Assembly: GCA_036274315.1 (NCBI GenBank)
Contig: DASUFY010000201.1
Location: forward strand, 316-64,315
DNA: 64,000 nucleotides
Reading direction: 5' to 3'
DNA from: Planctomycetota bacterium
Lineage (GTDB): Bacteria > Planctomycetota > UBA1135 > UBA2386
In this document: piece after piece, positions 28,103 to 61,010 of the stretch
Layout of the letters: each line of letters begins with the position of its first letter
How positions within the stretch are numbered: the first letter of the stretch is position 1
The notes under the pieces: model-generated
The model's input: the letters and a program-made list of their open reading frames with translations, nothing else
Databases searched by the model: none
Told to the model about the DNA's origin: nothing
Made by a program: the position numbers and the translations under genes

Positions 28103-28870
28103 TCAGTTCGCGGCGTCGACGCGATCCCAGAGGTAGACCTCGGTCCGATAGACCATCGTGGCGCGGCCCTGCGCGTCGCGGTGCTCAGCATGCAGCGCGC
28201 GCAGCAGGCCGAGCAGCGTGTCGGTGCGCGGACCCGAACGCGGCACCGTCGAGGTGCTCATCGCCCTGCCGAGCAGTTCCTCTTGGGTCAGCGGGTGCGC
28301 GTTCCGGAACGTCAGCGCGCGCAGGCCGGTGAAACGGCCGGTGGCCGCGACCGTCTCGGGATCGAACGTGCTGCGTTCGGCGGGGGCGTCGCCGTCGATG
28401 GCCTCGAGCGCGGCGCGGTAGCCGAGCGTGAACGCGTCTTCGCGGCTGCGTTTGTTCCAGAGGATCGCGAGCCGGCCGCGCGGGCGCAGCACGCGCTGGA
28501 ACTCGCGCAGCGCGACATCGCCCGCGAACCAGTGGTAGGCCTGCGCCACCGTGACGAGGTCGCAGCTGCCGGCCGGCAGCGTGCTCGCCTCGGCGGTGCC
28601 GTCGATCCAGGTCACGTTCGGATGCGCGAGCGCCGCGCCGCGCATCTCGGCGTTGGGCTCGACCGCGAACACGCGCGCGCCTCGATCGGCGAACAGGCGC
28701 GTCGAGATGCCGGTGCCGGCGGCGACGTCGGCGACGACCAGCCCCGACGGCGGGGACAGGCCGGCGAGGATCGCGTCGATCGCGGCGTCCGGATAGCTCG
28801 GGCGGAAGCGCGCGTAGTCGCTGGCCCGGTCGTGGAAGCGTCGCGTCGGGTGGTCGTCGAGAGGTTCCAT
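28103..28870 (-). CDS. Class I SAM-dependent methyltransferase
   Basis: ORF trimmed to the ATG at 28870 (MEPLDDHPTRRF). Motif I is VADVAAGTGIST. LVTVAQAYHWF and LRPRGRLAILW are typical of Methyltransf_11-type enzymes. Confidence 0.85.
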   Translation of the reverse strand: MEPLDDHPTRRFHDRASDYARFRPSYPDAAIDAILAGLSPPSGLVVADVAAGTGISTRLFADRGARVFAVEPNAEMRGAALAHPNVTWIDGTAEASTLPAGSCDLVTVAQAYHWFAGDVALREFQRVLRPRGRLAILWNKRSREDAFTLGYRAALEAIDGDAPAERSTFDPETVAATGRFTGLRALTFRNAHPLTQEELLGRAMSTSTVPRSGPRTDTLLGLLRALHAEHRDAQGRATMVYRTEVYLWDRVDAAN

Positions 28871-28951
28871 GGCGCGCGAGCGTAGCGTCGCGCGCGGCCG
28901 CGTCACGCGCACGCCGGTGCCGCGCGAGCTGCCTCGCTCGCGGGCGCCCCG

Positions 28952-30745
28952 CTACGTGCCCGCCGCGACCGCCATGCCTCGGTCGACGGGGCGACCCTCG
29001 AGCCGCAGCAGCAGCCGGAACACGGCGCCGCCGCCGGGTCGCTCGACGTACTCGACACCGCCGCCGTGCGCGGCGGCCACCTCGGCCGCGATCTTGAGGC
29101 CGATGCCGATGCCGGCCGGCTTGTCGACGAGCACGTCGCCACCCTGCGTGAAGTAGTCGAAGATGCGCTCGCGATCGTGCGCCGGGATGCCGGGGCCGCG
29201 GTCCCTGACCTCGACGACGAAGCCACCGGGCACCGCGTGCGTCGCGACGTCGACCGTGCCTCCGCTCGGGCTCCAGGTCCACGCGTTGTGCAGCAGCTGG
29301 TAGATCGCCTGCGTGATGCGCTCGCGGTCGCCGGTCAGCACGGCGTTGTCGCTGTCGACGGCGAAGTGCACGCGCTTCAAGGCCCGCAGGCTGTCGAGGC
29401 GCCGGCAGGCCTGTTCGCAGGCGCTGTGCAGGTCGACGCGCCCGACCGTCCACTGCGTCCTGCCGCCGGCCAGGTTCGCGAACTCGAGTGCGTCGTTGAT
29501 GCGCTGGCCCAGGCGTTCGGACTCGCGCAGGATCGTCGTCAGGAACTCGGTGCGTTCCGCCGCGGACGCCGTCTCGCCGAACTGCTGCAGCAGTTCGGCC
29601 GTCGATTGGATGCCGGTCAGCGGCGTGCGCAGTTCGTGGCTCATCGAGGTCAGGAAGCCGTCCTTGGCCCGGTTGGCCGCATCGGCGCGCGCCGCCTTGT
29701 CCGTGACTTCGGCGACGAGCGTCTGCATGGTCTGCGCCATGCTGTTGAACGAGACCGCGAGGCGGCCCAGTTCGTCGTCCATCGCGGCGGCATCGACGCG
29801 CGTCGCCAGGTCGCCGGTGCCCATGCGATCCGAGGCGGCGATCAGGGCCCGCAACGGCCGCGACAGGCGCGCCGCGGTGCGCATCGCGAACGCGACGCCG
29901 AGCAGGACCAGGCAGCCGCCGACGGCGAGCAGCCAGCCGCGCGCTTCGTCGCGCAGCGCCAGGATGGGGCGCAGGTCGTGCGAGAGGTAGGCGACGCCGC
30001 CGTCGGGATGCAGCTGCATGGCGAGCCCGGGCTGCGGGCGGCCGTCGACGGTGAGCTCGACCGCGGTGCCGCGGGCGGCGAGGCCCGCGTGGCGCAGGCG
30101 CTGCAGCGGTGCGAGGTCGACGCCACCGGGCGTGCGGTGCAGCCAGTGTTGCGCGAGGATCACCCCGTCGTGGCTCAGCACGACGTCGCGGCCGGCGATC
30201 GCGCCGATGCGCGCGGCCAGCGCGTCGTCGACGAGTTCGCCGCGCACGAGCGCACCGAGCAGCTCGCCGCGCTGGGCCAGCGGCGCGATCGCGACGAGGG
30301 CCAGGCCTTCGGGGTGCGGCCAGACGTGGTCGGCCGTGCCTTCGCGCATCGCGTCGGCGAAGCCCGGCATGGCGCCGAGTTCGGTGCCGGCCGGCCATCC
30401 GCCGCGGCTCGCGAGCACGCGGCCCTTCGGATCGAGCACGGCGACCACGGGCGCCTGCATCTCGTCGAGCACGTCCTCGAACGTCGCCGCGTCGACGCCC
30501 GGGATGCCGGCCGTCGCCAGCAACACGGGCGTGCGCGAGAGCACCTGGGTCTCGCGGCGCAGCGATCGCTGCCGCAGGTCCATCTGCGTCGTGAAGCTGT
30601 GGTGGCTGTCCTGGACCTCGCGCTCGACCTGTTCCGCGGCGAAGCGACCGGTCAGCACGGCCAGCACGACGACCGCCGTGGCGACGAACGCCGCGACGAG
30701 CAGCGTCGTGCCGAGCACCAGGCGAGCGCGGAAGCCGAGGCGCAT
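28952..30745 (-). CDS. Sensor histidine kinase (two TM segments, periplasmic domain, HAMP, HisKA, HATPase_c); no adjacent response regulator
   Basis: 597 aa. HAMP region LSRPLRALIAASDRMGTGDLATRV...LGRLAVSFNSMAQ. H-box SMSHELRTPLTGI, N-box LLHNAWTWS, G-boxes VRDRGPGIP and GIGIGLKIA. Confidence 0.9.
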   Translation of the reverse strand: MRLGFRARLVLGTTLLVAAFVATAVVVLAVLTGRFAAEQVEREVQDSHHSFTTQMDLRQRSLRRETQVLSRTPVLLATAGIPGVDAATFEDVLDEMQAPVVAVLDPKGRVLASRGGWPAGTELGAMPGFADAMREGTADHVWPHPEGLALVAIAPLAQRGELLGALVRGELVDDALAARIGAIAGRDVVLSHDGVILAQHWLHRTPGGVDLAPLQRLRHAGLAARGTAVELTVDGRPQPGLAMQLHPDGGVAYLSHDLRPILALRDEARGWLLAVGGCLVLLGVAFAMRTAARLSRPLRALIAASDRMGTGDLATRVDAAAMDDELGRLAVSFNSMAQTMQTLVAEVTDKAARADAANRAKDGFLTSMSHELRTPLTGIQSTAELLQQFGETASAAERTEFLTTILRESERLGQRINDALEFANLAGGRTQWTVGRVDLHSACEQACRRLDSLRALKRVHFAVDSDNAVLTGDRERITQAIYQLLHNAWTWSPSGGTVDVATHAVPGGFVVEVRDRGPGIPAHDRERIFDYFTQGGDVLVDKPAGIGIGLKIAAEVAAAHGGGVEYVERPGGGAVFRLLLRLEGRPVDRGMAVAAGT

Positions 30746-35334: not shown

Positions 35335-36633
35335 CTAGTAGACGTAGCACTCGCCGCCGTTGCTCGTCGTCGCGCCGAGCGCGTTGGCCGCCGCGTCGAG
35401 GCACAACCACTGGATCGGCAGGCGTTCGCCCGAGAACGACGGGTTGTTCGGGATCGTGAACGACAGCTGCCCCGCGCCCGTGCCGCCCGCCAGCGTGAGC
35501 AAGGAGCCGCCGAGGTCGTTGTACTGCGTGCACATCGGCATGCCGATGATGCCGAGATCGCGCGGCAGCATGCCGAGCGGGTCGGCTGTGCGCGAGCTGC
35601 CGAACATCAGCAGCGCTGCCGTGTTCGGCAGCGCGTCCGCGAGCGACACCGCGAACGTCATGCCGATCGCGGGCGGCGCCGTGAAGCCGAGCGCGGGCGT
35701 CACGCCCGTGCTGCCGACGCAGCCGCTGCCGTAGACGAGCATCGTCGCGACCGGCGCCGGCCCGAGCACGAGGTCGTCGATGGGCACCGTGCTCGTGTAC
35801 AGCGGCGTCGCCACCGACGAGCTGTGGATCGTCCACGCGCCCGGCGTCTCGGCGACGACGAAGATGGTCAGGGTCGGGTCGACGGCGATCGAGGTCAGCT
35901 TGCCGAGCCCGGTCGTGAGGAACGGGGACAGGGCGCCGGTGACCGGATCGACGAAGGACAGCCCGCCGGTGCCGTCGCCGACGAGCAACATGCCGGCGAA
36001 CTCGGCCATCGCGTAGAACGGCGGATAGCCGCTGCCGACGATGCGGTCGGTGTTGGCGACCAGATCCCATTCGATGATCGTGCTCGTCGCGGCCGCGGTG
36101 CCGTCACCTTCCGACAGCGCGTAGGCCTTGCTGCCGATGACGACCATGTCGGCCGCGTTGTCGGGCAGCAGCGTCGGAGTCGGTTGCGAGGTCACCATGC
36201 CGCTGGCCATGTTGCGCAGGAACATGCGGTTGATCTGGCCGCCGCGACCGAGCAGCATCAGGCCGAAGCCCGGCGCAACGCGCAGTTCGTACGGCAGGCC
36301 CGGCACGCCGAGGTTGACCGGCAGGCTGGTGCGCGTGAAGCGATTGCCGTCGAGCTGCAGCACCAACACCGTGGTCGAGATCGAGATCGAGATCGAGGTG
36401 ATCGAGTAGATCGTGTTCGGCGCGAGCGGGTCGATGGCCATCGTGCGGCTGCCGTGCTGCGTCAGGTTCCCGGTCACGGGCACGAGCGGCGTGATCGTGC
36501 CGAACACCGGATCGACGATGCCGGTCGCGGGCACCGTCGTCGACGCGACGCGGTTCGCATAGAGCAGGTGACCGTACGGGATCTGCGCGGTGGCGGTTGC
36601 ACCGAGCGCGAGAACGACGAGGAGCTTGGACAT
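35335..36633 (-). CDS. Secreted protein of unknown function sharing a C-terminal module with the 11617..13602 product
   Basis: ORF 35335..36771(-) trimmed to the ATG at 36633 (MSKLLVVLALGATATAQ). The C-terminus reads YGSGCVGSTGVTPALGF...AALLMFGSS...GMPMCTQY...LSFTIPNNPSFSGERLPIQWLCLDAAANALGATTSNGGECYVY. Confidence 0.7.
   Translation of the reverse strand: MSKLLVVLALGATATAQIPYGHLLYANRVASTTVPATGIVDPVFGTITPLVPVTGNLTQHGSRTMAIDPLAPNTIYSITSISISISTTVLVLQLDGNRFTRTSLPVNLGVPGLPYELRVAPGFGLMLLGRGGQINRMFLRNMASGMVTSQPTPTLLPDNAADMVVIGSKAYALSEGDGTAAATSTIIEWDLVANTDRIVGSGYPPFYAMAEFAGMLLVGDGTGGLSFVDPVTGALSPFLTTGLGKLTSIAVDPTLTIFVVAETPGAWTIHSSSVATPLYTSTVPIDDLVLGPAPVATMLVYGSGCVGSTGVTPALGFTAPPAIGMTFAVSLADALPNTAALLMFGSSRTADPLGMLPRDLGIIGMPMCTQYNDLGGSLLTLAGGTGAGQLSFTIPNNPSFSGERLPIQWLCLDAAANALGATTSNGGECYVY
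36375..36398. repeat. In-frame hexanucleotide repeat (TCGAGA)x3 plus TCGAGG, encoding (Ile-Ser)n
   Basis: tcgagatcgagatcgagatcgagg lies inside the 35335..36633 CDS, where the minus-strand protein reads SITSISISISTTV. It creates a local cluster of GATC sites. Confidence 0.85.
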
Positions 36634-36812
36634 GGGCCTCCGGCTGCCGGGGCGGGGCAGGCGCCCGAGGATAGCATGCCCGCGGCAGGCCTGCCCCCGC
36701 GGCCCGCAGCTCGTGCTCCACCCAGGGGCTGCGGTGGCCGTGGACCCCCCGTGCGCCAGCCCGCCGTGCATCCGATCTGGCCGCCGCGGGGAGTTGGCGT
36801 TCCGATCCCTTC

Positions 36813-39800
36813 ATGCGCGGACTCGAGCACGAACTGACCAGCCACGCCGCGGCCCTGCGCGGCCTCGCGCGCGTGCTGGTCGGCGAGCAGCAGGCCGACG
36901 ACCTCGTGCAGGACACGGCGCTGCAACTGCTCGCCGCACCGCCGCCGCGGCTCGCGGGCCTCTTCGGCTGGCTCGCCGCGGTGCTGCGCCACCGCGCGAG
37001 CAAGCACCACCGCGGCGAACGCCGCCGGCAGCGGCGCGAGCGCGCGAGCCCGCCGCCCGATCCCGTCGCGACGCCGAGCCATCTCGCCGAACACAAGGAG
37101 ACGCTGCAGCGCCTGACCGCGGCGCTGACGTCGCTGCCCGAACCCTACCTCGGCACGCTGCTGCTGCGCTTCTTCGAGGACCTGCAGCCGGGCGCCATCG
37201 CGGCGCGCACGGGCGTGCCGCTGGCGACCGTCAAGAGCCGGCTGCAGCGCGGCCTCGCGACGCTGCGCGCGCAGCTCGCGGCGCGCGATGCGCACTGGCG
37301 GCCCGCGCTCGGCGCCGTCTTCGGCGGCGTCTTCGGCAGCAGTGCCGCACCGATCGCAACCACCACTGCGGGAGTCCTGTTCATGGGCAGCGCGAGCAAG
37401 CTGGCAGTCGGAGCCGCCGTGTTGGCGGTGGCGGCGACGTTGTGGTTCGGCCGCGAGGCCGTGTTCGGTGCAACCGCGGGCCGCACCGATGCACACGACG
37501 GTGCGCCGCTTGCGGCCGCGGCGCTCGAACGATCGCCGGCGCGCGACGTCGCGACGCAACCCGATGCCCCGGGCGCCTTGCGCACGGGCAGCGAGCGCGA
37601 GCTCGCGGCCGCCGACGTGACGCTGCGCGGCCGCGTCGTCGACGAACGCGGACTGCCGCTCGCGGGCTGCGCCGTCGCGCTCAGCGGTCACCGCGTGACG
37701 GGCGGTGTGGGCAAGGACTTCGCGCGCGAGTACTCGGACTGGCTCGTGCGCGGCGGCCGGCCATCACTCGACCGCGAGACGACGACCGGCAGCGGCGGTG
37801 CGTTCACGTTCGTGGTCGAGCCGTCGCCGCTCAACCTCGGCCTGTCGCTGCGGCGCGACCGGCTCGACTGGCGGCTGAGCATCGGCCAGATGCTGCGCAG
37901 CGAGACCCGCGACCTCGGCGACCTGTGCGTGCCGTGCTCGTGCGTCGTGCGCGTGCGCGTGCGCGACACCGCCGGCGCCGAGCTTCCGGCGCCGGTCGTC
38001 TCGATCCGGCCCGCGGCACGCGATCCGAACGCGCGCAACGTGCCGTGGGCCGACTTCACCGAACCCGAGGTCGGCGCCGACTGGCTGCTGGCGGCGGGCA
38101 CCTGGCAGTGCAGCGTCGGCCGCACGATCGAACGCGGCGAGCAGTTCGTCGTGCCGCCCGGCGCGGCGGTCTTCGACCACGAGATCGTCGTCGGCGCGTT
38201 GCCGCCGGCGCAGGTGCTCGCGGGGCTCGTCGTCGACGAGCACGACCTGCCCGTGCCCGGCGTCGCCCTCACCGCTTGGAACGGCGTCACCAGCGCCGGT
38301 ACGCGCACGCGTCGCGACGGCCGCTTCGCGCTGCTGCAGGCCACCAGCGGCGGCCCCGATGCCGACCTGTCGCTCGACAAGCGCGGCTTCGAGCCGCAGC
38401 GCATCCGCGTGCGCTTCGGCGACCCCGAGCTGCGCCTGACGCTGCGCGCGAGTTCGGCAATCGTCGTGCACGTCGTCGCCGACGCCGACGGCGCGCCGGT
38501 CGAGGACTTCTGCGTGCGCCGCTGGTGGGACGTGAAGTCGGATCCTGTGGCCTTCGTCGACGAGGGCAAGGAGCTCGTCGACGGCCATCACGAAGGCGGC
38601 GTTGCGGTGGTCGAGGACATCGCGCGCGGCGACCACTTGTTGATCGTCGAACCGCTGCGCCTGGACCTCTGGCGCAGTGATGCGGTGCCGGTGGCCGTGA
38701 CGCCGGGTGGGCCCGTGCACGTCGAGGTGCGGCTGCAGGCGGCGGCGAACCGTCTGGTGCGGGTGCAGCGTGGCGACGAGACGCCCGTGCGGGCCGCCGC
38801 GATCGACGTCGCCGACGCCGGCACGATGCTCGGCCAGGGCATGTCGGTCGTGACGCTCGAGCACTGGAGCCCGCGCACGGACCGCGACTTCGGGCCGCTG
38901 CTGCTGCACCAGACGAGCACCGACGCGAGCGGCGAAGCGATGCTGCGTGGTCCCGCGGGCCGCGCCGTGCGGCTGCGTGTCACGTGCAAGGGCCTGCCGC
39001 AGCTGATCCCGGAGCCCATGCGGCTCGACGACCCCGAACCGCTCGTGCTCACGCTGCCGGCGGCCGCGCGGCTCGTCGTGCACGTGCATCCGCCGGCGAT
39101 GGTTCAGCTGTTGCGCGAGGCTTGCGGCCTGTCGCGCGAAGGGCCCGCACCGCGGCGCGGGCCCAACCACAAACCCGGCTTCCGGCTGTTCCGCGGCGCC
39201 TGGCTCGAACGCGAGATGCTGCCGCCGTCGCGCGAGCCGCCGTTCTCGATTGCGGGCGACGGCACGGTCGTCATCGACGAGGCGCCGGCCGGCGACTGGC
39301 AGCTCGGGCTCGACGCGTGGCACGAGGTCTCCGGCACGATGTTCTCGTGGGGCGCGCCCGTGCTGCTTGCACCCGTTGCGCTGCGCGAAGGCGTCACGAC
39401 GGAGATCGAACTCGACCTCGGTGACCACCTGCCCGGCGAACTCGACGGCACGGTCACGTGCAACGGCGAGCTCGTGGCGGACGCGGCGATCGCGATCGAG
39501 GTCGAGCGCCCGACCGGCGAGTTCCCGTGGCCGGGACGCTTCCTGCTCAACGCGAAGACCGACGCCGAGGGCCGCTTCCATCTGCGCATGCCGCCGGGCT
39601 CCCTGCGCGTGGCGATCGATCGCACGGCGCAGCATCGCGCACCGCTGGGGGGCGGGTCGTACTCGTACCAGCTCGTCTACGCGGACCAGCAGCTGCAGCT
39701 GACCGCCGGCAGCGCGGTGCAAGCGACGTTCGCGGTCGAGCCGTGCACGCTGCGCCTGCGCGTGCTCGACGAGCGCGGCGAGCCCGTGGCAGGCGTGCCG

Positions 39801-40070
39801 TTGTTGCTGCCGGGCCCGCAGCTGGCGCTGTGGCACCGGCCCGCGGCGACCGACGCCGAGGGTTGCACGACCTGCGAGGTCGAGCCTGGGACGTTCTCGG
39901 TGCAGGTCCTGCCGCGCCGCCTGCTCGCCGACGGCGCGCAGGCGCAGTTCCTGCGCGAGCACCGCGGCGTGCACGACGCGCTGGCGCCGTTCCGGATCCG
40001 GCTCGGCGACGTCACCGCGGTGCGCGGCAAGACGGGCACGTTCGAGCTGCGGCTGCCACCCGGGTGGTGA
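36813..40070 (+). CDS. ECF sigma-70 factor fused to a membrane segment and a large CarboxypepD_reg-like repeat domain
   Basis: Single uninterrupted 1085-aa ORF starting at the ATG at 36813. Sigma-2-like region ADDLVQDTALQLL...FGWLAAVLRHRASKHHR. Sigma-4 region LTSLPEPYLGTLLLRFFEDLQPGAIAARTGVPLATVKSRLQRGLATLR. Hydrophobic stretch at about aa 165-212 (ALGAVFGGVFG...KLAVGAAVLAVAATLWF). About 850 aa follow with repeats such as VTLRGRVVDERGLPLAGCAVAL and LRLRVLDERGEPVAGVPLLL...TDAEGCTTCEVEPGTFSVQV. Confidence 0.75.
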   Translation: MRGLEHELTSHAAALRGLARVLVGEQQADDLVQDTALQLLAAPPPRLAGLFGWLAAVLRHRASKHHRGERRRQRRERASPPPDPVATPSHLAEHKETLQRLTAALTSLPEPYLGTLLLRFFEDLQPGAIAARTGVPLATVKSRLQRGLATLRAQLAARDAHWRPALGAVFGGVFGSSAAPIATTTAGVLFMGSASKLAVGAAVLAVAATLWFGREAVFGATAGRTDAHDGAPLAAAALERSPARDVATQPDAPGALRTGSERELAAADVTLRGRVVDERGLPLAGCAVALSGHRVTGGVGKDFAREYSDWLVRGGRPSLDRETTTGSGGAFTFVVEPSPLNLGLSLRRDRLDWRLSIGQMLRSETRDLGDLCVPCSCVVRVRVRDTAGAELPAPVVSIRPAARDPNARNVPWADFTEPEVGADWLLAAGTWQCSVGRTIERGEQFVVPPGAAVFDHEIVVGALPPAQVLAGLVVDEHDLPVPGVALTAWNGVTSAGTRTRRDGRFALLQATSGGPDADLSLDKRGFEPQRIRVRFGDPELRLTLRASSAIVVHVVADADGAPVEDFCVRRWWDVKSDPVAFVDEGKELVDGHHEGGVAVVEDIARGDHLLIVEPLRLDLWRSDAVPVAVTPGGPVHVEVRLQAAANRLVRVQRGDETPVRAAAIDVADAGTMLGQGMSVVTLEHWSPRTDRDFGPLLLHQTSTDASGEAMLRGPAGRAVRLRVTCKGLPQLIPEPMRLDDPEPLVLTLPAAARLVVHVHPPAMVQLLREACGLSREGPAPRRGPNHKPGFRLFRGAWLEREMLPPSREPPFSIAGDGTVVIDEAPAGDWQLGLDAWHEVSGTMFSWGAPVLLAPVALREGVTTEIELDLGDHLPGELDGTVTCNGELVADAAIAIEVERPTGEFPWPGRFLLNAKTDAEGRFHLRMPPGSLRVAIDRTAQHRAPLGGGSYSYQLVYADQQLQLTAGSAVQATFAVEPCTLRLRVLDERGEPVAGVPLLLPGPQLALWHRPAATDAEGCTTCEVEPGTFSVQVLPRRLLADGAQAQFLREHRGVHDALAPFRIRLGDVTAVRGKTGTFELRLPPGW

Positions 40071-40103: not shown

Positions 40104-40501
40104 TCAGGCGGGCGGGATGTCGATCGCCCGCAGCTGGCGCACGAGGTCGCGGCGGAACGCATCGAGTTCCTGCGCCGATACTCCCGGTAGTCGCGCATCG
40201 ATGCCGATCTTGATCGCGTCGATCAGCCAGGCAAGTGTCGCTGCAGAGACGCCACCGTCCTTGCGTTCGGCATCCGTGAGCACGGCGCGAAGGTCGAGCC
40301 CGCGTCGCAGGATGGCGCGCAGGTCGATCAGGTCGCGGATCTCGCCGCGCCCGGGCAGCGCGCAGACCTTGTTCGCCGCGATCTCGCGCAGCGAATGCAG
40401 GCGCACACCGTCGGCGGCGAGCTCCGGCGGGTCGACATCCGGGGTGCGGTCTCGCGCAGCACCTCGGCCTGCAATCGACTAAGCCCGCGGGATGAGTCCA
40501 T
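40104..40501 (-). pseudogene. Nucleotidyltransferase AbiEii-family toxin gene remnant (internal deletion and frameshift)
   Basis: The ATG at 40501 overlaps the 3' end of the upstream ORF and encodes MDSSRGLSRLQAEVLRE, an N-terminus typical of this family. After about 20 codons the homologous frame changes to DVDPPELAADGVRLHSLREIAANKVCALPGRGEIRDLIDL...ERKDGGVS (family C-terminal half). The NTase core in between is missing. Confidence 0.5.
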
Positions 40502-40793
40502 CGCTGCGCCATCCTTCGATGAGCCAGTTCCAGAACTCGCGCGAACGCCCGAGATGGCGATCGATGCGCGGCAGCAGGGGCAACACGTCCCGCAGGCGCA
40601 GCAGCTTCCAGACATCCTTGTAGCGGGCTTCGCGCATCACGCGGCCCATCCACAGCGCCCGCTCGTCGAGGTCGGTCGAAGCGAGCTTCTCGCGTAGCTC
40701 CGCGTAGGTGATCTCCTCATCCCAGATGAAGTACGGCCGCGCATTCGGGTCGTCGAGGTCCATCGAGAGGGGATTCGCCACGCGCAGCAGCAT
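40479..40793 (-). CDS. Small conserved-looking protein, probable partner (antitoxin-like) of the AbiEii-type gene
   Basis: 104 aa from the ATG at 40793 (the track ORF begins at a TTG at 40817). Sequence is well balanced (YFIWDEEITYAELREKLAS...WMGRVMREARYKDVWKLLRLRDVL). It overlaps the start of the toxin remnant. G+C looks lower than the surroundings by eye. Confidence 0.55.
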   Translation of the reverse strand: MLLRVANPLSMDLDDPNARPYFIWDEEITYAELREKLASTDLDERALWMGRVMREARYKDVWKLLRLRDVLPLLPRIDRHLGRSREFWNWLIEGWRSDGLIPRA

Positions 40794-41004
40794 CGCGCCG
40801 CCTCGGTCGGTTGGCAATCACTGCTCCGCGGTGCGCGCGTGGAATGGTGGATGCGGTCGCTCAGCGGCCCGGATCGCCCAGCACCTGGTCCAACTCCGGG
40901 CAGCCGGATCGGCTGTCGCTACCGGCGCGTGTCCGGGTCTTCGAGCGCGACTTGCCACGCGCAGGCCTGCGTCAGCTGGTCATTGTCGTCGTTCGGAGAA
41001 CCGT

Positions 41005-42975
41005 TCAGCGCACCGCCGGCCGCGACTCGAGCGTGCAGTGCGCGGGGCCGCGCCGCGTCGCGTGCGCCTTCTGCGCCGAGCTGTCCGGCGTCCACGGTCC
41101 GAAGTCTGAATCGAGGTGCAGCAGCAGCACGGTCGCAGCGTCGCTCTCGTGTCGCACCGGCGGTGCGAACGAGGGGCCCGCGTAGCGCGCGACGCTCGAC
41201 AGCCGCACCTCGTCGATGCAACCCGCGAAGAACGAGCCCGGCGCGCCGTTGCCGTTCGGATCGGCGCCGACGAACAGCGGCAACTCGTTCGTCTTGCGCG
41301 CGCCGTGGGCCGCGCTCTCCGCCGCGAGCCTGCCGTCGACCCAGCAGCGCACGCGGCTGCCGTCGAAGACGCCCGCGACGTGGTGCCACCGGCCCGCCGT
41401 CAGCGACACCTCCTTGCTCTCGGCGTGCGCATAGCGGTCGCCGAGCCAGACGAGGAACTCCGGTTTGCCGTCGCTGCAGTACAGACCGAAGTCGCTGTTC
41501 TCGGTCTTGGCGAGCAGCGCGCGCCGGCCGCGGAAGTCCTCGCCGCGCAGCCAGGCTTCGATCGTGAACGGACCATCGGGCAGCTGCACGCGCGACGAGG
41601 CCAGCTCGAGGCAGGCCTTCTTGCCGTCGAGCACGAGCACCCCTTCGTGCGGTGCGGCCGTGGTGCCGAGGTCGTCGGGCGGCGGCAGCTCGAGCACGAA
41701 CTCGCGCCGCGGCAGGCCGATGCGCGCATGTTCGGCGAGGTAGTCGCAGCGCACCTCGACGTTGGGCAGCACGAACGGCACCGCGGCGTCGGCGTGCCGG
41801 CGCACCGCGAACGTCGTCGTGCCGTGCTGACCGGGCGCCACGACGACGTGCTGGTGGTCGGGCGAGAACACGTAGCCGGATTCGGCGATCGGCACGAGTT
41901 CGAGTTCGATCGCGCGCGTGGCCGGATTGTCGCAGCGCAGCGTGAGCACCGCGTCGACGCTGCCGTCGCTGCGCACGCCGGCCCCGGGTCCGGCGGCGAC
42001 GCAGCTCACGAGCGAGGGCTGCAGGTGGGCGTGCACGAGGTCGACGTCCTCGCTGAGCTGGCCCGTGATCAGCTTGGGGTCCATGACGGTGCCCACGGGC
42101 AGTGCAGCGACCGTGATGCCCTCGGGCCGCACGGTGACGACGTGGAACTGGTGCAGGTAGCCGGCCGCCGGTGCTTCGAACTCGAGGTTGGCGCCGACCG
42201 AAGCGACCGTGAAGTACTGGATGCCGTCGCGCACGCCGTCGAAGCGCATGCGGTGGATGTGCCCGGCGAACACGGCGGTGACGTTGCCGTTCCGGGCCAG
42301 CAGCGTGTGCACACGATCCCAGTCCGTGCCGTAGCGGGCGAGCCAACGCGGGTGGTGCAGGAACACGAACACGTGCCGCGCGCCCTTGGCCTGCTGCAGC
42401 GTCTCTGCGAGCCACGTGAACTGCGCTTCGCTCATGCGCTGGGCGTCGGGGTCGTCGAAGTTCTTGGCGCCCGTCGTCGGGTTGCCCTCGTCGCTGTAGA
42501 GCACGACGAACCAGCACTGCTTGTGCTGCACCGCGTACCAGAGCGGACCGAACACCGTCTCGAAGTCGTGTTCGTGTTCGCCGCGCGGCTTGTCGGGGCC
42601 GCGCCAGTAGATGTCGTGGTTGCCCGCGACGGGAAACCACGGCATGCGCAGCTTCGCCATCGTCGCCTTGAACTCGACGGCCTGCTCGTGCCAGGCGTCG
42701 TGCGCGTTGTAGCCCTGCACGAGGTCGCCGACCGTGAACACGAGGTCGGGGTCGAGCAGGTTGGTGTCGGCGACGGCCTGCGCGAGCACCTGGATGCCCT
42801 CCTTGGGGCCGCCCGTGCGGTCGCCGAAGACGACGAAGCCGAACGCGTCGTCTTCCTTGGGCAGCTTCAACAGCTCGGCGCCGGCGGCGCGGCTCGTGTG
42901 CAGGCGCGGATCCTGGGCGGCGGGTGCGGCCAGCGGCGCGGCGCAGGCAAGGAGGAGCAGCAGGTGGCGGACCAT
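41005..42975 (-). CDS. Secreted calcineurin-like metallophosphoesterase with C-terminal LamG/concanavalin-like domain
   Basis: ORF 41005..44451(-) trimmed to the ATG at 42975 (MVRHLLLLLACAAPLAAPAAQ). Phosphoesterase motifs VVFGDRTGG, TVGDLVQG, AGNHD, FLHHP and AGHIH. The C-terminus is Laminin_G_3-like (FTIEAWL...ALLAKTENSDFGLY...WHHVAGVFDG...CWVDG...LFVGADP...GCIDEVRLS). Confidence 0.85.
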   Translation of the reverse strand: MVRHLLLLLACAAPLAAPAAQDPRLHTSRAAGAELLKLPKEDDAFGFVVFGDRTGGPKEGIQVLAQAVADTNLLDPDLVFTVGDLVQGYNAHDAWHEQAVEFKATMAKLRMPWFPVAGNHDIYWRGPDKPRGEHEHDFETVFGPLWYAVQHKQCWFVVLYSDEGNPTTGAKNFDDPDAQRMSEAQFTWLAETLQQAKGARHVFVFLHHPRWLARYGTDWDRVHTLLARNGNVTAVFAGHIHRMRFDGVRDGIQYFTVASVGANLEFEAPAAGYLHQFHVVTVRPEGITVAALPVGTVMDPKLITGQLSEDVDLVHAHLQPSLVSCVAAGPGAGVRSDGSVDAVLTLRCDNPATRAIELELVPIAESGYVFSPDHQHVVVAPGQHGTTTFAVRRHADAAVPFVLPNVEVRCDYLAEHARIGLPRREFVLELPPPDDLGTTAAPHEGVLVLDGKKACLELASSRVQLPDGPFTIEAWLRGEDFRGRRALLAKTENSDFGLYCSDGKPEFLVWLGDRYAHAESKEVSLTAGRWHHVAGVFDGSRVRCWVDGRLAAESAAHGARKTNELPLFVGADPNGNGAPGSFFAGCIDEVRLSSVARYAGPSFAPPVRHESDAATVLLLHLDSDFGPWTPDSSAQKAHATRRGPAHCTLESRPAVR

Positions 42976-43083
42976 GGCGCGCAGCTTCCTGCGGCCGGTG
43001 CGCGGGGAACAGGGCGGGTGTGCGGTTCTCGTTGCCGTCGGCATCGTGTGTGCCGGGTCGTGACCATCCGATTGAGCACTTTC

Positions 43084-43099
43084 GTTTATCATGATAAAC
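43084..43099. promoter_or_regulatory. 16-bp perfect AT-rich palindrome GTTTATCATGATAAAC in a divergent intergenic region (candidate operator or bidirectional -10)
   Basis: The sequence is its own reverse complement. It ends 9 nt upstream of the ATG at 43108 and lies 109 nt from the divergent start at 42975. It is 12/16 A+T in a genome that is over 70% G+C. Confidence 0.6.
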
Positions 43100-43107
43100 A
43101 AAAGCGC

Positions 43108-44256
43108 ATGTTCGAGCGAGAATTGGTGCTCCCGGCCCGACCCAGGACGAGCGCGTTCCTCTGGGGACCGCGCCAGACCGGCAAGAGCTCGCTGTTGCGG
43201 TCCCGATACCCGAACGCCAGGTGGCTCGATCTGCTCAAGAACGAGGAGTTCGTTCGCTACAGCCGCCAGCCGGAGCTGTTGCGCGAGGAGCTGAGCGCGC
43301 GGCCGGCATCCGTGGTCGTCGTCGACGAGGTGCAGAAGGTGCCGGCGTTGCTCGACGAAGTACATTGGTTGATCGAGAATCGCGGCTGCATCTTCGTTCT
43401 CTGCGGCTCGAGCGCCCGAAAGGTGCGGCGCGGTCATGCCAACCTGCTCGGTGGCCGCGCCATCCGCAACGAACTGTTCGGCCTCGTTTCCGCCGAGATC
43501 GGCGCCGACTTCGACCTCGTGCGCGCCGTCAACCACGGCGGCCTGCCGCGCCACTACCTCGAGGACGCACCTGCGAAGCTGCTGCAAGCCTACGTCGACG
43601 ACTACCTCAAGGAGGAGATCGCGGCCGAGTCCCTGGTCCGCAATCTGCCCGCGTTCGCCAACTTCCTCGGCGCCGCCGCCCTCGCCGACACCGAGATGAC
43701 CAACTACGTCAACATCGCCCGCGAATGCGGCGTCTCGGCACCGACCGTACGTGAGCACTTCCAGATCCTGGTCGACACCCTGCTCGGCCGATTCGTGCCT
43801 GCCTACACCAAGCGACCCAAACGGCGCGTCATCCAGGCGCCCAAGTTCTATTTCGCCGACGTCGGCGTGGTGAACTGTCTGACCCGACGACGCCAGCTGC
43901 AGCCCGGTACCGAGTCGTTCGGCAAAGCGCTCGAGAGCTGGGTCTGCCACGAACTGAGCGCCTACCTGGCCTATCGCGAAGTCGGATGCGAGCTGCGCTA
44001 CTGGCGTCTGGCCAGTGGCATCGAGGTCGATTTCGTGACCGACGACCTGCGCCTCGCGGTCGAAGTCAAGTCGACGGCGCGGCCCAGCGACGCGCACCTG
44101 AGCGGCTTGCGCGCCCTGCGCGAGGACCAGAGGTCGGTGCAACGCCGCGTTCTGGCTTGCCTCGAGCGTCGCCCGAGGCGCACGGAAGACGGCATCGACA
44201 TCCTGCCGGTCGACGAGATGCTGCGCCGTCTCTGGTCCGGCGATCTGATGAAGTGA
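43108..44256 (+). CDS. AAA-family ATPase with DUF4143 C-terminal domain (AAA_14/DUF4143 type)
   Basis: Real start is the ATG at 43108 inside ORF 41116..44256. Walker A LWGPRQTGKSSL and Walker B VVVVDEVQK. The downstream APKFYFADVGV and EVDFV blocks are typical of DUF4143 proteins. Confidence 0.85.
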   Translation: MFERELVLPARPRTSAFLWGPRQTGKSSLLRSRYPNARWLDLLKNEEFVRYSRQPELLREELSARPASVVVVDEVQKVPALLDEVHWLIENRGCIFVLCGSSARKVRRGHANLLGGRAIRNELFGLVSAEIGADFDLVRAVNHGGLPRHYLEDAPAKLLQAYVDDYLKEEIAAESLVRNLPAFANFLGAAALADTEMTNYVNIARECGVSAPTVREHFQILVDTLLGRFVPAYTKRPKRRVIQAPKFYFADVGVVNCLTRRRQLQPGTESFGKALESWVCHELSAYLAYREVGCELRYWRLASGIEVDFVTDDLRLAVEVKSTARPSDAHLSGLRALREDQRSVQRRVLACLERRPRRTEDGIDILPVDEMLRRLWSGDLMK

Positions 44257-44483
44257 CTCGGATCGGCTCCATGCGTGAAGGGGAACCCAGCTGCGCCCCA
44301 ACCTGCCAGGAAGCCGCCGCCCACGTTCCGCTGCGCGCGAAACCTCGTGCTCGCCACGCAGCGCTTTTTCGAAGAATCGGCAACCGCGCAGGCCGTTGCG
44401 GACCCGGAGCCGGGTCCACCTTCCCACCCGAGTGCATGGCCGAGCGTGCATCCACGCGGCCGCGAGCCTTCCCCTTGCTGCGC

Positions 44484-59252: not shown

Positions 59253-61010
59253 ATGCGAGCCGCAGCGACCCTGATCCTGTTCGGAGCGCTCCCGGCGTTC
59301 CTTCCCGCCCAACAGAACCGCGACGACCTGACGCCGCTCGACATCGGCTACACGGTGTCGGTGCTCGACGACAAGGCGACCGTGCACGTCGACGTCGACG
59401 TGCACCACCTCGCGCGACCGACGACGCGCGTCGCGATCCCCAACTGGATGCCGGGCGCCTACGGCATCCGCGACTTCGGCGCCCAGATCGACGGGCTCAC
59501 CGCGACCAGCGGCGAGCGCAAGCTCGACGTGCTGCAGATCGATCCGTTGACGTGGTCGATCGACACGCAGGGCATCGACACGATGCGCGTCGCCTACGAC
59601 ACGAAGCAGCGGCCGGGCCGCTTCGGGCCGCGCGCGACCGGCGACGAGAAGACCGGCATGCAGATCTCGGGACCCGCCACGTACGTGTACGTCGTCGGTG
59701 CCAAGGAACGCCCCGTGACCGTGCGCTACCGGCTGCCCGAGGGCTGGAAGTACGCCAACGGCCTGCTGCCGACCGACGACCCGCTCGTGCGCCGCGCGCG
59801 CGACTACGACACGTTCATCGACGCGCCGACGCAGGTCGGCATCTTCAAGTCGTACGACTTCGACGTGAACGGCACGCCGTTCCAGTGCGTGTTCTTCGAG
59901 AACCAGCAGCGCTACGACTTCGACGTGCCCGCGTTCGTCGACCTCGTCAAGCGCATTGCTGCCTACGAGGGTTCGCTGTTCGGCAGCTTCCCGTTCCCCA
60001 ACTACGTGTTCCTGTTCACGATCCCCGGCGGCGGCGGACTCGAACACCTGAACTCGACGAGCATCGGCCTCAACGCGGCGGCCCAGGCCAAGGACCCGCG
60101 CGCCGGCGCGTTCGTGACCGCGCACGAGTTCTTCCACCTGTGGAACGTCAAGCGCATCCGGCCGAAGGTGCTCGGGCCGTTCGAGTACGAGCACGAGAAC
60201 TACACCGGCAACCTGTGGGTGTCCGAGGGCTGGACCTCGTACTACGGCGATCTCGCGCTCGTGCGCACGGGCATCACGTCGAGGGACGAGTTCCTGTCGT
60301 CGTTCGCTCGCTACATCCAGACCGAGCTCAACAAGGATTCGCGCAAAGAGCACTCGGTCTACTGGGCCAGCCGCAACGTCTGGCATCGCGAACGCGACGA
60401 GGCGCCGCGCGTCGACTACTACGCCAAGGGCGAGATGCTCGGCGCGATGATCGACCTGAAGATCCGCCACGAGACCGACAACCGCAAGTCGCTCGACGAC
60501 GTCATGGTGTTCCTGAACCGCTGGTTCGCCGAGCGCGGCGTCGGCTTCGAGGAGGGCGACATCGAGCGCGCCTGCACCGCGATCAGCAACCACGACTTCG
60601 GCGAGTTCTTCGCGCGGCACGTGCGCGGCACGCTCGATCCGCCGCTGGCCGAGTACCTGGCCTACGCCGGCATCGAGTACCGCGAGCAGAACGAGGTCGC
60701 GTCGGCGCTGCCGTTCGAGACGCGGCGCGGCGGCAACGGGCTGCGCGTCACGACCGCGAGCGTCGCCGAGGTGCAGACCGGCGACGTGGTCACCGCGCTC
60801 GGCAGCGAACGCGGCGTGCAGCCGGCGGTCTTCTTGAAGGAACGCAAGCCCGGCGAGAAGGTCCAGGTCGAGCTGCTGCGCGACGGCAAGACCGAGCAGG
60901 TCGAGGTGTCGCTGCGCGAGCAGAAGCGCATGACGCCGACGCTGCGGTTCGTCGACGCGCCGACCGAGCAGCAGCAGCGCATCCGCGACGGCTGGCTCGG
61001 CGGCAAGTAG
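59253..61010 (+). CDS. M61-family glycyl aminopeptidase with C-terminal PDZ-like domain
   Basis: 585 aa. Signal MRAAATLILFGALPAFLPAQ. The M61 hallmark is VTAHEFFHLWNVKRIRP...WVSEGWTSYYG. The C-terminus (VQTGDVVTALGS...VQVELLRDGK) is PDZ-like. Confidence 0.9.
   Translation: MRAAATLILFGALPAFLPAQQNRDDLTPLDIGYTVSVLDDKATVHVDVDVHHLARPTTRVAIPNWMPGAYGIRDFGAQIDGLTATSGERKLDVLQIDPLTWSIDTQGIDTMRVAYDTKQRPGRFGPRATGDEKTGMQISGPATYVYVVGAKERPVTVRYRLPEGWKYANGLLPTDDPLVRRARDYDTFIDAPTQVGIFKSYDFDVNGTPFQCVFFENQQRYDFDVPAFVDLVKRIAAYEGSLFGSFPFPNYVFLFTIPGGGGLEHLNSTSIGLNAAAQAKDPRAGAFVTAHEFFHLWNVKRIRPKVLGPFEYEHENYTGNLWVSEGWTSYYGDLALVRTGITSRDEFLSSFARYIQTELNKDSRKEHSVYWASRNVWHRERDEAPRVDYYAKGEMLGAMIDLKIRHETDNRKSLDDVMVFLNRWFAERGVGFEEGDIERACTAISNHDFGEFFARHVRGTLDPPLAEYLAYAGIEYREQNEVASALPFETRRGGNGLRVTTASVAEVQTGDVVTALGSERGVQPAVFLKERKPGEKVQVELLRDGKTEQVEVSLREQKRMTPTLRFVDAPTEQQQRIRDGWLGGK

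Follow-up and report, generated by a model that had tools for sequence, protein, structure and literature searches.

A planctomycetal family of ECF sigma factors fused to a membrane anchor and an extracytoplasmic beta-sandwich array, with a probable internal translation start

Introduction

Extracytoplasmic function (ECF) sigma factors constitute the third major pillar of bacterial signalling. ECFs that carry membrane-spanning regulatory extensions have been described as the 'one-component systems of the sigma universe' (PMC7671368, PMC7826278, PMC8999054). Among the fused sigma/anti-sigma proteins, regulated intramembrane proteolysis has been shown for IutY, involving Prc and RseP, and has been proposed for the groups ECF48, ECF52 and ECF53 (PMC8999054). 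Planctomycetota, and above all the Saltatorellus clade, are unusually rich in ECFs (bioRxiv 10.1101/817700). In this phylum, the ECF57 proteins bear transmembrane (TM) and WD40 extensions (PMC8999054), and Pinto and da Fonseca (2020) reported a variety of Pfam domains in the extensions of planctomycetal ECFs (PMC7671368). The control of these extended planctomycetal ECFs is largely untested. Here, we analyse a gene at positions 36813 to 40070 (+ strand) of a 64,000-nucleotide stretch of contig DASUFY010000201.1 from a soil bacterium of the Planctomycetota, hereafter the window. An earlier sequence-only reading had proposed that it encodes an ECF sigma factor fused to a membrane segment and a long repeat array. 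We find that the single polypeptide genuinely combines an ECF sigma factor with a membrane anchor and, outside the membrane, a large array of beta-sandwiches, and that the gene probably also yields a sigma-less form of the anchored ectodomain from an internal start site.

The concept of such a protein is known from IutY, ECF48/52/53 and ECF57; this ectodomain, without an anti-sigma module, is new. The family cleanly exemplifies the direct tethering of a sigma factor to the membrane without such a module; one member comes from a cultured strain, and the family offers testable handles in the form of a defined candidate promoter and of juxtamembrane and C-terminal motifs.

Domain layout and predicted topology

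The frame of 1085 codons is free of internal stops, as the sequence-only reading had stated. Its G+C content by codon position (0.78, 0.53 and 0.92 at the first, second and third positions, in a window of 71% G+C) follows the coding pattern typical of real genes here, and does so uniformly along the fused open reading frame (ORF). Profile matches, family conservation and an AlphaFold2 model for which 99 sequences of the family were used (mean predicted local distance difference test score, pLDDT, of 82.4; predicted template modelling score, pTM, of 0.69) give the following layout.

36813..40070, + strand: whole ORF, ECF sigma factor plus TM helix plus beta-sandwich ectodomain, 1085 aa plus stop, ATG start
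36816..37043, + strand: sigma-2 domain, residues 2-77 (Pfam, TIGR02937; AlphaFold2 helices 2-23, 25-41 and 50-77, pLDDT 80-95)
37074..37286, + strand: sigma-4 domain, residues 88-158 (Pfam; AlphaFold2 helices 88-106, 112-121, 126-133 and 137-158)
37290..37325, + strand: juxtamembrane segment, residues 160-171, DAHWRPALGAVF (family conservation; AlphaFold2 short helix 162-170)
37395..37451, + strand: single predicted TM helix, residues 195-213 (Kyte-Doolittle; AlphaFold2 helix)
37452..37604, + strand: Ala/Pro-rich disordered stalk of about 50 aa, residues 214-264 (AlphaFold2 pLDDT below 50 over 213-264; alignment variable and gapped)
37605..40067, + strand: about eight transthyretin/CarboxypepD_reg-like beta-sandwiches, residues 265-1085 (Pfam, AlphaFold2)

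By sequence, the N-terminal head qualifies as an ECF (group 4) sigma-70 factor, having both a sigma-2 and a sigma-4 region and, among the Pfam matches of the 1085-aa protein, no sigma-1.1 or sigma-3 domain. The NCBIfam model TIGR02937 (sigma70-ECF) matches residues 6-155 with 54.5 bits (cutoff 42.9), Sigma70_r4_2 (PF08281) matches residues 99-151 with 36 bits (cutoff 25.7), and solved ECF SigE chains can be aligned to the head over its whole length (residues 9-164, E = 9e-10). The profile that tells against this assignment is Sigma70_r2 (PF04542), which on residues 10-72 reaches 22.6 bits, marginally below its cutoff of 24; in relatives, it scores 30-47 bits. Profile search thus recovered both the sigma-2 region and the sigma-4 region named in the sequence-only reading, and the three peptide strings quoted there are all present in the translation. 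In the model the two domains are joined by a linker of about 10 residues. Family-invariant positions are D30, Q33 and W53 in sigma-2, and P136, T139, K141, R146 and G147 in sigma-4. The ECF-like motif upstream of the family's genes, described below, would be indirect evidence that the head binds core RNA polymerase and initiates at a specific promoter.

The stretch from sigma-4 to the TM helix is short, at about 37 residues, yet strongly conserved. Its family motif is D-W-R-x2-L-x2-A-F-G, and among 25 full-length relatives at 27-50% identity W162, R163, F170 and G187 are invariant, with M191 and K196 nearly so. The AlphaFold2 model has low confidence between the short helix 162-170 and the helix 195-213. 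In the query, as in almost every one of the 25 relatives, 19-residue Kyte-Doolittle windows exceed 1.6 in one place only, at about residues 186-213, which predicts one TM helix with the sigma domain inside and the array outside. The sequence-only reading had allowed for one or two TM helices. A single helix stands, and a second one is ruled out, since segment 165-183 peaks at a hydropathy of 1.36 and carries charged residues in homologues, and the model likewise has one helix. The predicted topology, drawn from sequence and model, is therefore a cytoplasmic sigma-2/sigma-4 head, one TM helix and about 870 residues outside, made up of the stalk and about eight modules.

The ectodomain is all-beta in the model over residues 269-1080 and can be divided into about eight sandwich modules. 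CarboxypepD_reg (PF13620) scores 71.6 bits against a cutoff of 32.3, spread over four stretches, and this Pfam model picks up only about half of the modules. The beta-sandwich array of the sequence-only reading is thus confirmed, whereas its size of 850 aa is not, the folded domains spanning about 810 aa behind the stalk of about 50 aa. Foldseek against the PDB found no specific structural homologue of the ectodomain. The matches were generic multi-sandwich proteins (a Bacillus anthracis TIE protein, alpha-2-macroglobulin MG domains and Gram-positive pilins) with Foldseek probabilities of 0.9-1.0 and TM-scores of at most 0.11. The protein ends with LRLPPGW (40047-40067), and an extreme C-terminus of the form (L/I)xLRLPxxW is kept in fused and sigma-less forms of the family alike. 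As a speculation, this motif could serve as a recognition element for a protease or a PDZ domain. PDZ domains are fused to, or adjoin, some family members.

Reality of the fusion and distribution of the family

A fused ORF of this kind could arise artificially, if a missed frameshift, a missed stop or a chimeric assembly joined an ordinary ECF sigma gene to a membrane-protein gene. Long spurious ORFs are common in high-GC DNA, the only point found in favour of this explanation, but independent data speak against it. A soil-metagenome run (X1) that contains 96% of the words of the region yielded independent assembly contigs over 36700-37241 and 37223-37645, with 0 differences, 0 gaps and a depth of about 12-14x. 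The junction, including 37250-37500, for which the sequence-only reading had wanted assembly support, is thus reproduced exactly. Moreover, more than 150 fused homologues come from many samples and include one encoded by a cultured strain's complete genome, the codon-position G+C is uniform, and the junction is conserved in protein sequence. An artefact is effectively refuted, and ~1,000-aa proteins annotated just as 'sigma-70 family RNA polymerase sigma factor' are not mis-assemblies.

The full protein matched 98 other sequences, all of 700-1450 aa and all with sigma and CarboxypepD_reg domains. Those with a name all belong to metagenome-assembled genomes (MAGs) of Planctomycetota. The best of the 98 is 49% identical over the full length. 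The cultured strain is Saltatorellus ferox Poly30, whose complete genome encodes the same architecture in 1098 aa, at about 5,113,201-5,116,497 of CP036434. A relative from a Polyangia MAG (L014) has this architecture plus a C-terminal PDZ domain, confirmed with Pfam. A further sigma-fused member of 938 aa (L013, contig JBLIMI010000214.1) lies on a contig binned as 'Candidatus Paceibacteria', where such a protein is unexpected, so that the contig is probably mis-binned.

Whether orthologues are fused or split, a question left by the sequence-only reading, was addressed by scanning species-representative genomes and metagenome contigs for the sigma head. Among the 45 sigma ORFs that scored at least 100 bits against a profile of the family sigma head, 39 carried an extension of at least 200 aa, the other six were cut by a contig end, and none was a complete stand-alone sigma factor. 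Below 100 bits almost all matches were ordinary short ECFs. One locus (L043) was considered as a 'split' orthologue and rejected, as it consists of a broken sigma-2 fragment followed by unrelated sequence. The family is, on this sequence evidence, mainly planctomycetal and conserved as fused proteins. Since the head, the junction motif and the fusion are kept at 27-50% identity without a stand-alone orthologue, we consider that the fused state has been under long-term purifying selection.

Comparison with described systems

The closest described system is IutY of Pseudomonas putida (ECF243; PMC8999054, PMC9249621). Both proteins have an N-terminal ECF sigma factor, one TM helix and a periplasmic C-terminal part, and neither has a separate anti-sigma gene. 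Prc/RseP-type release, known for IutY, is only proposed here. IutY, unlike the window protein, contains an anti-sigma domain of the FecR type, placed between its sigma-4 and TM helix, as well as a periplasmic FecR domain, and it receives its signal from a TonB-dependent transducer, whereas no TonB-dependent receptor gene lies near the window gene. The window protein differs further in its ectodomain of about 810 aa of beta-sandwiches and in the spacer that links sigma-4 to the TM helix, of only about 37 residues. With the actinobacterial groups ECF52, ECF48 and ECF53, exemplified by SCO4117 (PMC5826349, PMC8999054), it shares a membrane-crossing C-terminal extension, a large extracytoplasmic part and a proposed proteolytic activation. 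In those proteins, a ZAS-like zinc-finger module precedes the TM helix or helices, and there is a Pro-rich region with a carbohydrate-binding domain, from which the ectodomain of the window protein differs.

No anti-sigma domain was found in the protein, in which FecR, DUF4880 and zf-HC2 had no Pfam match (FecR and DUF4880 at E up to 1). Residues 1-213 contain no Cys, and no Cys or His motif of the kind that forms the HxxxCxxC-like zinc finger of ECF52/48/53. ECF57 (formerly ECF01-Gob; PMC8999054) shares the phylum and a long C-terminal extension of protein-protein-interaction repeats, but its extension is WD40-like and two conserved cysteines are proposed to link its sigma-2 and sigma-4. The window protein has no WD40 match and no Cys in the sigma head, nor is a Cys conserved there in the 25 relatives. 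ECF263 has an extension of five or seven TM helices (PMC7826278), as opposed to the one hydrophobic helix found here. The alpha-2-macroglobulin/MG-domain and pilin-type proteins resemble the ectodomain in fold at the level of the module, with no global match. The protein has no thioester CxEQ motif and no A2M Pfam domain above threshold, and its TM-score to the alpha-2-macroglobulin family is at most 0.09; relatives show weak MG-like Pfam traces only.

Full-text searches found no paper that links CarboxypepD_reg arrays to sigma factors. The family may already carry a group number in the ECF Hub. Extended planctomycetal ECFs that arose by sigma duplication and insertion are a general phenomenon (PMC7671368), and one that provides a plausible origin for this family. 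That work stresses unrelated and poorly conserved extensions, whereas here head, junction and ectodomain are conserved together in hundreds of members.

A promoter-like element upstream of the gene

The region upstream of the start codon contains the following element.

36768..36793, + strand: promoter-like bipartite motif, GCATCC (36768-36773), 13 nt, CGGGGAG (36787-36793), 20 nt before the start codon

Six relatives can be aligned in their upstream regions on GTGCATCC-N12-13-CGG(G/T)...TAG. The GCATCC motif lies 20-60 nt upstream of relatives L002, L003 and L004b, which served in its derivation, and it occurs at the same place in five loci that were fetched later and not used for the derivation (L056, L057, L058, L059 and L060). 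Variants precede L001, L004a and L009. The strict pattern GCATCCN{12,14}CGGKK has one match in the 64 kb, at 36768-36791, ending 22 nt before the start codon; the chance expectation is 1.14 matches on both strands of the window. The background of the 8-mer GTGCATCC is 1.9 per 100 kb of strand over all DNA examined. Looser regular expressions, tried for a regulon, were dropped as too permissive, and a scan for sigma-70-type promoters and terminators found 0 promoters. Upstream of sigma-less paralogues, the GCATCC promoter was not found in L053 or L054, the loci in which it was sought.

ECFs usually autoregulate (PMC7826278), and on this ground we read the upstream element as the gene's own promoter. 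The GCATCC-N13-CGG element may thus be an ECF-type promoter through which the encoded sigma would control its own gene.

A probable internal start site

A second conserved element lies inside the gene, in the codons just ahead of the TM helix.

37371..37385, + strand: Shine-Dalgarno (SD)-like GGAG (37371-37374), 8 nt, and the ATG of Met191 (37383-37385); proposed internal start of an 895-aa sigma-less isoform (residues 191-1085)

The codon of Gly187 and the base that follows it form this GGAG. Of the 22 loci with a Gly at 3-6 residues ahead of the Met, 16 use GGA for it, a rare codon that accounts for 13% of all Gly codons of these ORFs and for 4.6% of those of the window gene (binomial P = 3.6e-10; the product of the per-gene GGA shares is 4e-15). 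The closest relatives have GGAG-N8-ATG almost without exception. As a control, 13.8% of the other in-frame internal ATGs of the same ORFs are preceded by GGAG or GAGG at -18..-4. Since a selected synonymous position places an SD at good spacing from an invariant ATG, internal initiation is the best explanation, and the gene probably also yields a sigma-less anchored ectodomain from this conserved SD and ATG.

Two points weigh against this proposal. A distant sub-family, in which the Met is followed by Lys-Lys and which includes the S. ferox protein, lacks the SD signature, and the internal SD is therefore not universal. In addition, the role of the SD-like element could instead be to pause translation, or it could be kept for reasons at the level of the mRNA. 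On the pause explanation, GGAG would pair with the anti-SD and hold ribosomes at codon 191, just when sigma-4, whose end is near residue 158, emerges from the exit tunnel and the TM segment is yet to be synthesised. This would aid folding or membrane targeting, with the full-length protein as the only product. The arithmetic fits, as a P site at about codon 191 minus 30-35 tunnel residues falls roughly at the end of sigma-4, and such a pause would account equally well for the conservation at the nucleotide level. It leaves unexplained, however, the almost invariant Met 8 nt downstream, and also the SD of the same type and the equivalent start in the free-standing paralogues described below; moreover, SD-mediated pausing is itself disputed. 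We consider a pause in place of initiation to be unlikely.

If the internal start is used, one bacterial ORF would give programmed dual products, a regulator and the envelope protein that it regulates, which would be unusual, and a 'captured' start codon could stay functional after a gene fusion. On the sequence evidence, a captured downstream start site appears to be maintained by selection here. This dual-product reading is the part likely to surprise the specialist.

Sigma-less relatives and family clusters

The ectodomain alone, searched against 1.84 billion cluster representatives, gave 484 matches at E <1e-3, 130 of them at E <1e-30, aligned from end to end. The matches fall into two length classes, sigma-fused proteins of about 1050-1110 aa and sigma-less proteins of about 865-910 aa. 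Complete proteins among the best 150 matches (151 sequences with the query) number 55 fused and 50-52 sigma-less. Members of the sigma-less class begin with Met, which is followed by one or two basic residues and then by a TM helix, after which they align with the ectodomain end to end, including the C-terminal motif, and their length agrees with that of the predicted internal product. The free-standing sigma-less genes are genuine: one lies 120 nt after a VIT/VWA gene with its own GAGGAG-N5-ATG start, and sigma-less paralogues have GGAG-type SDs of their own. One protein (P0117, 870 aa) has an N-terminus, MATGVKLALGAVAAAV, that resembles the M191..K196 segment of the fused form and not the usual Met-Arg/Lys start of the sigma-less class; it is either a gene call that begins at a fused gene's internal ATG or a case of very recent sigma loss.

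Family genes often cluster with paralogues. At L054, a sigma-less gene stands directly upstream of a fused gene of 1076 aa, and at L052, two sigma-less copies are in tandem. Two stretches of one metagenomic organism (L053 2279-8646 and L054 180-6147) carry on a single strand, in this order, the genes of a 186-aa stand-alone ECF sigma factor, two small ORFs, and the genes of a 691-aa VIT/VWA protein, an 881-aa sigma-less anchored ectodomain and the 1076-aa sigma-fused member. As these genes are all on one strand, they may form a larger envelope-stress module. A four-gene cluster at L004 4684-14760 contains tandem sigma-fused genes (811 and ~1075 aa) and two ectodomain-like ORFs. In S. ferox Poly30, a gene for an 800-aa protein with an N-terminal TM anchor (L012 9336-11738, - strand) is convergent with the family member; its CarboxypepD-like modules and C-terminal PDZ-like segment were judged by eye only.

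In a crude neighbour-joining tree of the ectodomains (~29% identity), fused and sigma-less forms interleave, with at least 17 changes of state, and the identity between the classes, 0.288, equals that within them. There is accordingly no deep split between fused and sigma-less forms, and the tree is too noisy for counting events. This pattern bears on the possibility that the fusion is a by-product of genome evolution, in which a duplicated sigma-2/sigma-4 cassette landed upstream of the gene of an anchored envelope protein. Met191 and its SD would then be the old start, the ectodomain would be structural or adhesive and not a sensor, and the sigma would be weakly functional or merely co-expressed. 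Such an origin follows the published model for planctomycetal ECF extensions (PMC7671368), Met191 with its SD does resemble a former gene start, and the interleaving, the equal identities and the abundance of sigma-less forms, as common as fused ones among the top representatives, all fit it. But the conservation of the head, of W162, R163 and F170 and of the fusion itself across relatives, with no stand-alone orthologue, is not what a mere by-product would leave, and a working sigma factor is also suggested by the ECF-type promoter motif that is conserved upstream. We therefore judge such a by-product improbable.

Proposed mechanism

With moderate confidence, we favour a membrane-anchored, one-polypeptide ECF sigma factor that is released from the membrane, regulates its own gene and is accompanied by an internally started sigma-less product. 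By analogy with IutY and the ECF52-type hybrids, the tethered sigma would be inactive. A change at the ectodomain, for instance when it binds a ligand or partner, unfolds or is clipped, would permit cleavage at site 1 and then intramembrane cleavage at site 2, freeing a sigma factor of about 18-21 kDa. The freed sigma would bind RNA polymerase and fire the GCATCC-N13-CGG..TAG promoter of its own gene, resulting in positive autoregulation. Ribosomes would also start internally at Met191 behind GGAG and produce the 895-aa sigma-less anchored ectodomain, which would be the same product as that encoded by the free-standing paralogues. Such an internal product suggests a joint action of ectodomains with and without the sigma tag. 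The locus would in this way deliver an envelope protein plus a sigma-tagged 'sentinel' copy of it.

It should be noted that several points weigh against this proposal. Pfam and Foldseek found no enzymatic or known ligand-binding domain in the ectodomain and give no indication of a sensed signal. No S2P/RseP gene was identified in the 64-kb window. Proteolytic release is put forward by analogy, and the protease, the cleavage site and the released fragment are all hypothetical here. Finally, we infer the link between the promoter motif and the encoded sigma from sequence, and the 64-kb window has no second GCATCCN{12,14}CGGKK site.

The sequence-only reading had already raised the alternative that the sigma factor is never released and that the full-length protein recruits RNA polymerase at the membrane, in the manner of one-component regulators of the ToxR/CadC type, with the ectodomain modulating its activity through oligomerisation or conformational change. 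The protein has no anti-sigma domain that would keep the sigma inactive, and the juxtamembrane helix together with G187, M191 and K196 could pass a signal, both of which suit transcription at the membrane. Against it, the literature searched documents no membrane-bound active sigma factor (PMC8999054, PMC7826278), and of the fused proteins reported there only IutY has been characterised by experiment; it is released by proteolysis, as is predicted for ECF48/52/53. In addition, sigma-4 is linked to the TM helix by only ~37 residues, which would sterically constrain the formation of a holoenzyme at the bilayer. We regard this alternative as quite unlikely and prefer release by proteolysis.

A more specific version of the favoured mechanism is possible, and we put it forward tentatively. 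The two products would be made by design from one autoregulated promoter, the sigma-tagged copy would co-assemble with the untagged envelope protein or share its fate, and damage to the ectodomain assembly, or its consumption, would free the sigma and lead to more transcription of this gene. If true, this would be a self-contained homeostatic circuit without an anti-sigma factor, and sigma-less paralogues beside fused genes would represent a two-gene version of the same sentinel logic.

Gene neighbourhood

The genes around the fused gene, and two others in the window, are as follows.

35335-36633, - strand: divergent secreted protein of an unknown family, 432 aa (N-terminal signal-like MSKLLVVLALG; no Pfam match)
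40104-40406, - strand: AbiEii toxin fragment, 99 aa (profile positions 136-192 of 238 only, E = 6e-7)
40479-40817, - strand: small ORF, 111 aa, no family match, adjoining the AbiEii remnant
41005-44451, - strand: convergent metallophosphoesterase/LamG ORF, mechanically 1148 aa (both domains in the C-terminal half only)
59253-61010, + strand: M61 glycyl aminopeptidase gene, directly upstream of the next gene
61135-63549, + strand: CarboxypepD_reg protein without a sigma head, 804 aa (126 bits; ectodomain tblastn E = 0.05, distant)

None of the neighbouring genes encodes an anti-sigma factor. The sequence-only reading had noted that no separate anti-sigma gene follows, and the downstream genes are indeed the AbiEii fragment, the small ORF and the convergent metallophosphoesterase/LamG gene. 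That the protein is thereby functionally replacing the sigma/anti-sigma pair, as was also proposed, we can only infer. The neighbourhood is not conserved, the surroundings of two orthologues (P0002 and P0003) sharing nothing with the window, and the fused gene has no paralogue in the window, where tblastn with the sigma head and the ectodomain returned the gene itself only.

The mechanical ORF of the divergent 432-aa protein reaches 36771; the in-frame ATG at 36633 fits the signal peptide and gives an intergenic region of 179 bp that contains the promoter-like motif. Downstream, the 99-aa ORF covers just the C-terminal part of an AbiEii nucleotidyltransferase and is therefore taken as a truncated remnant. 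The stretch of ~0.9 kb at 40.1-41.0 kb has a G+C content of 0.67-0.71, as against ~0.75 in the flanking genes. In the ORF 41005-44451, a signal-peptide-like MVRHLLLLLACAAPLAAPAAQ occurs mid-way, and, as the domains are confined to the C-terminal half, the gene is probably much shorter, with a start near 42.9 kb. The upstream half of this ORF may be non-coding or belong to a gene on the opposite strand. Elsewhere in the window, a HAMP-HisKA-HATPase sensor histidine kinase gene (28952-30745, - strand), apparently unrelated to the fused gene, adjoins a class I methyltransferase gene (28103-28912).

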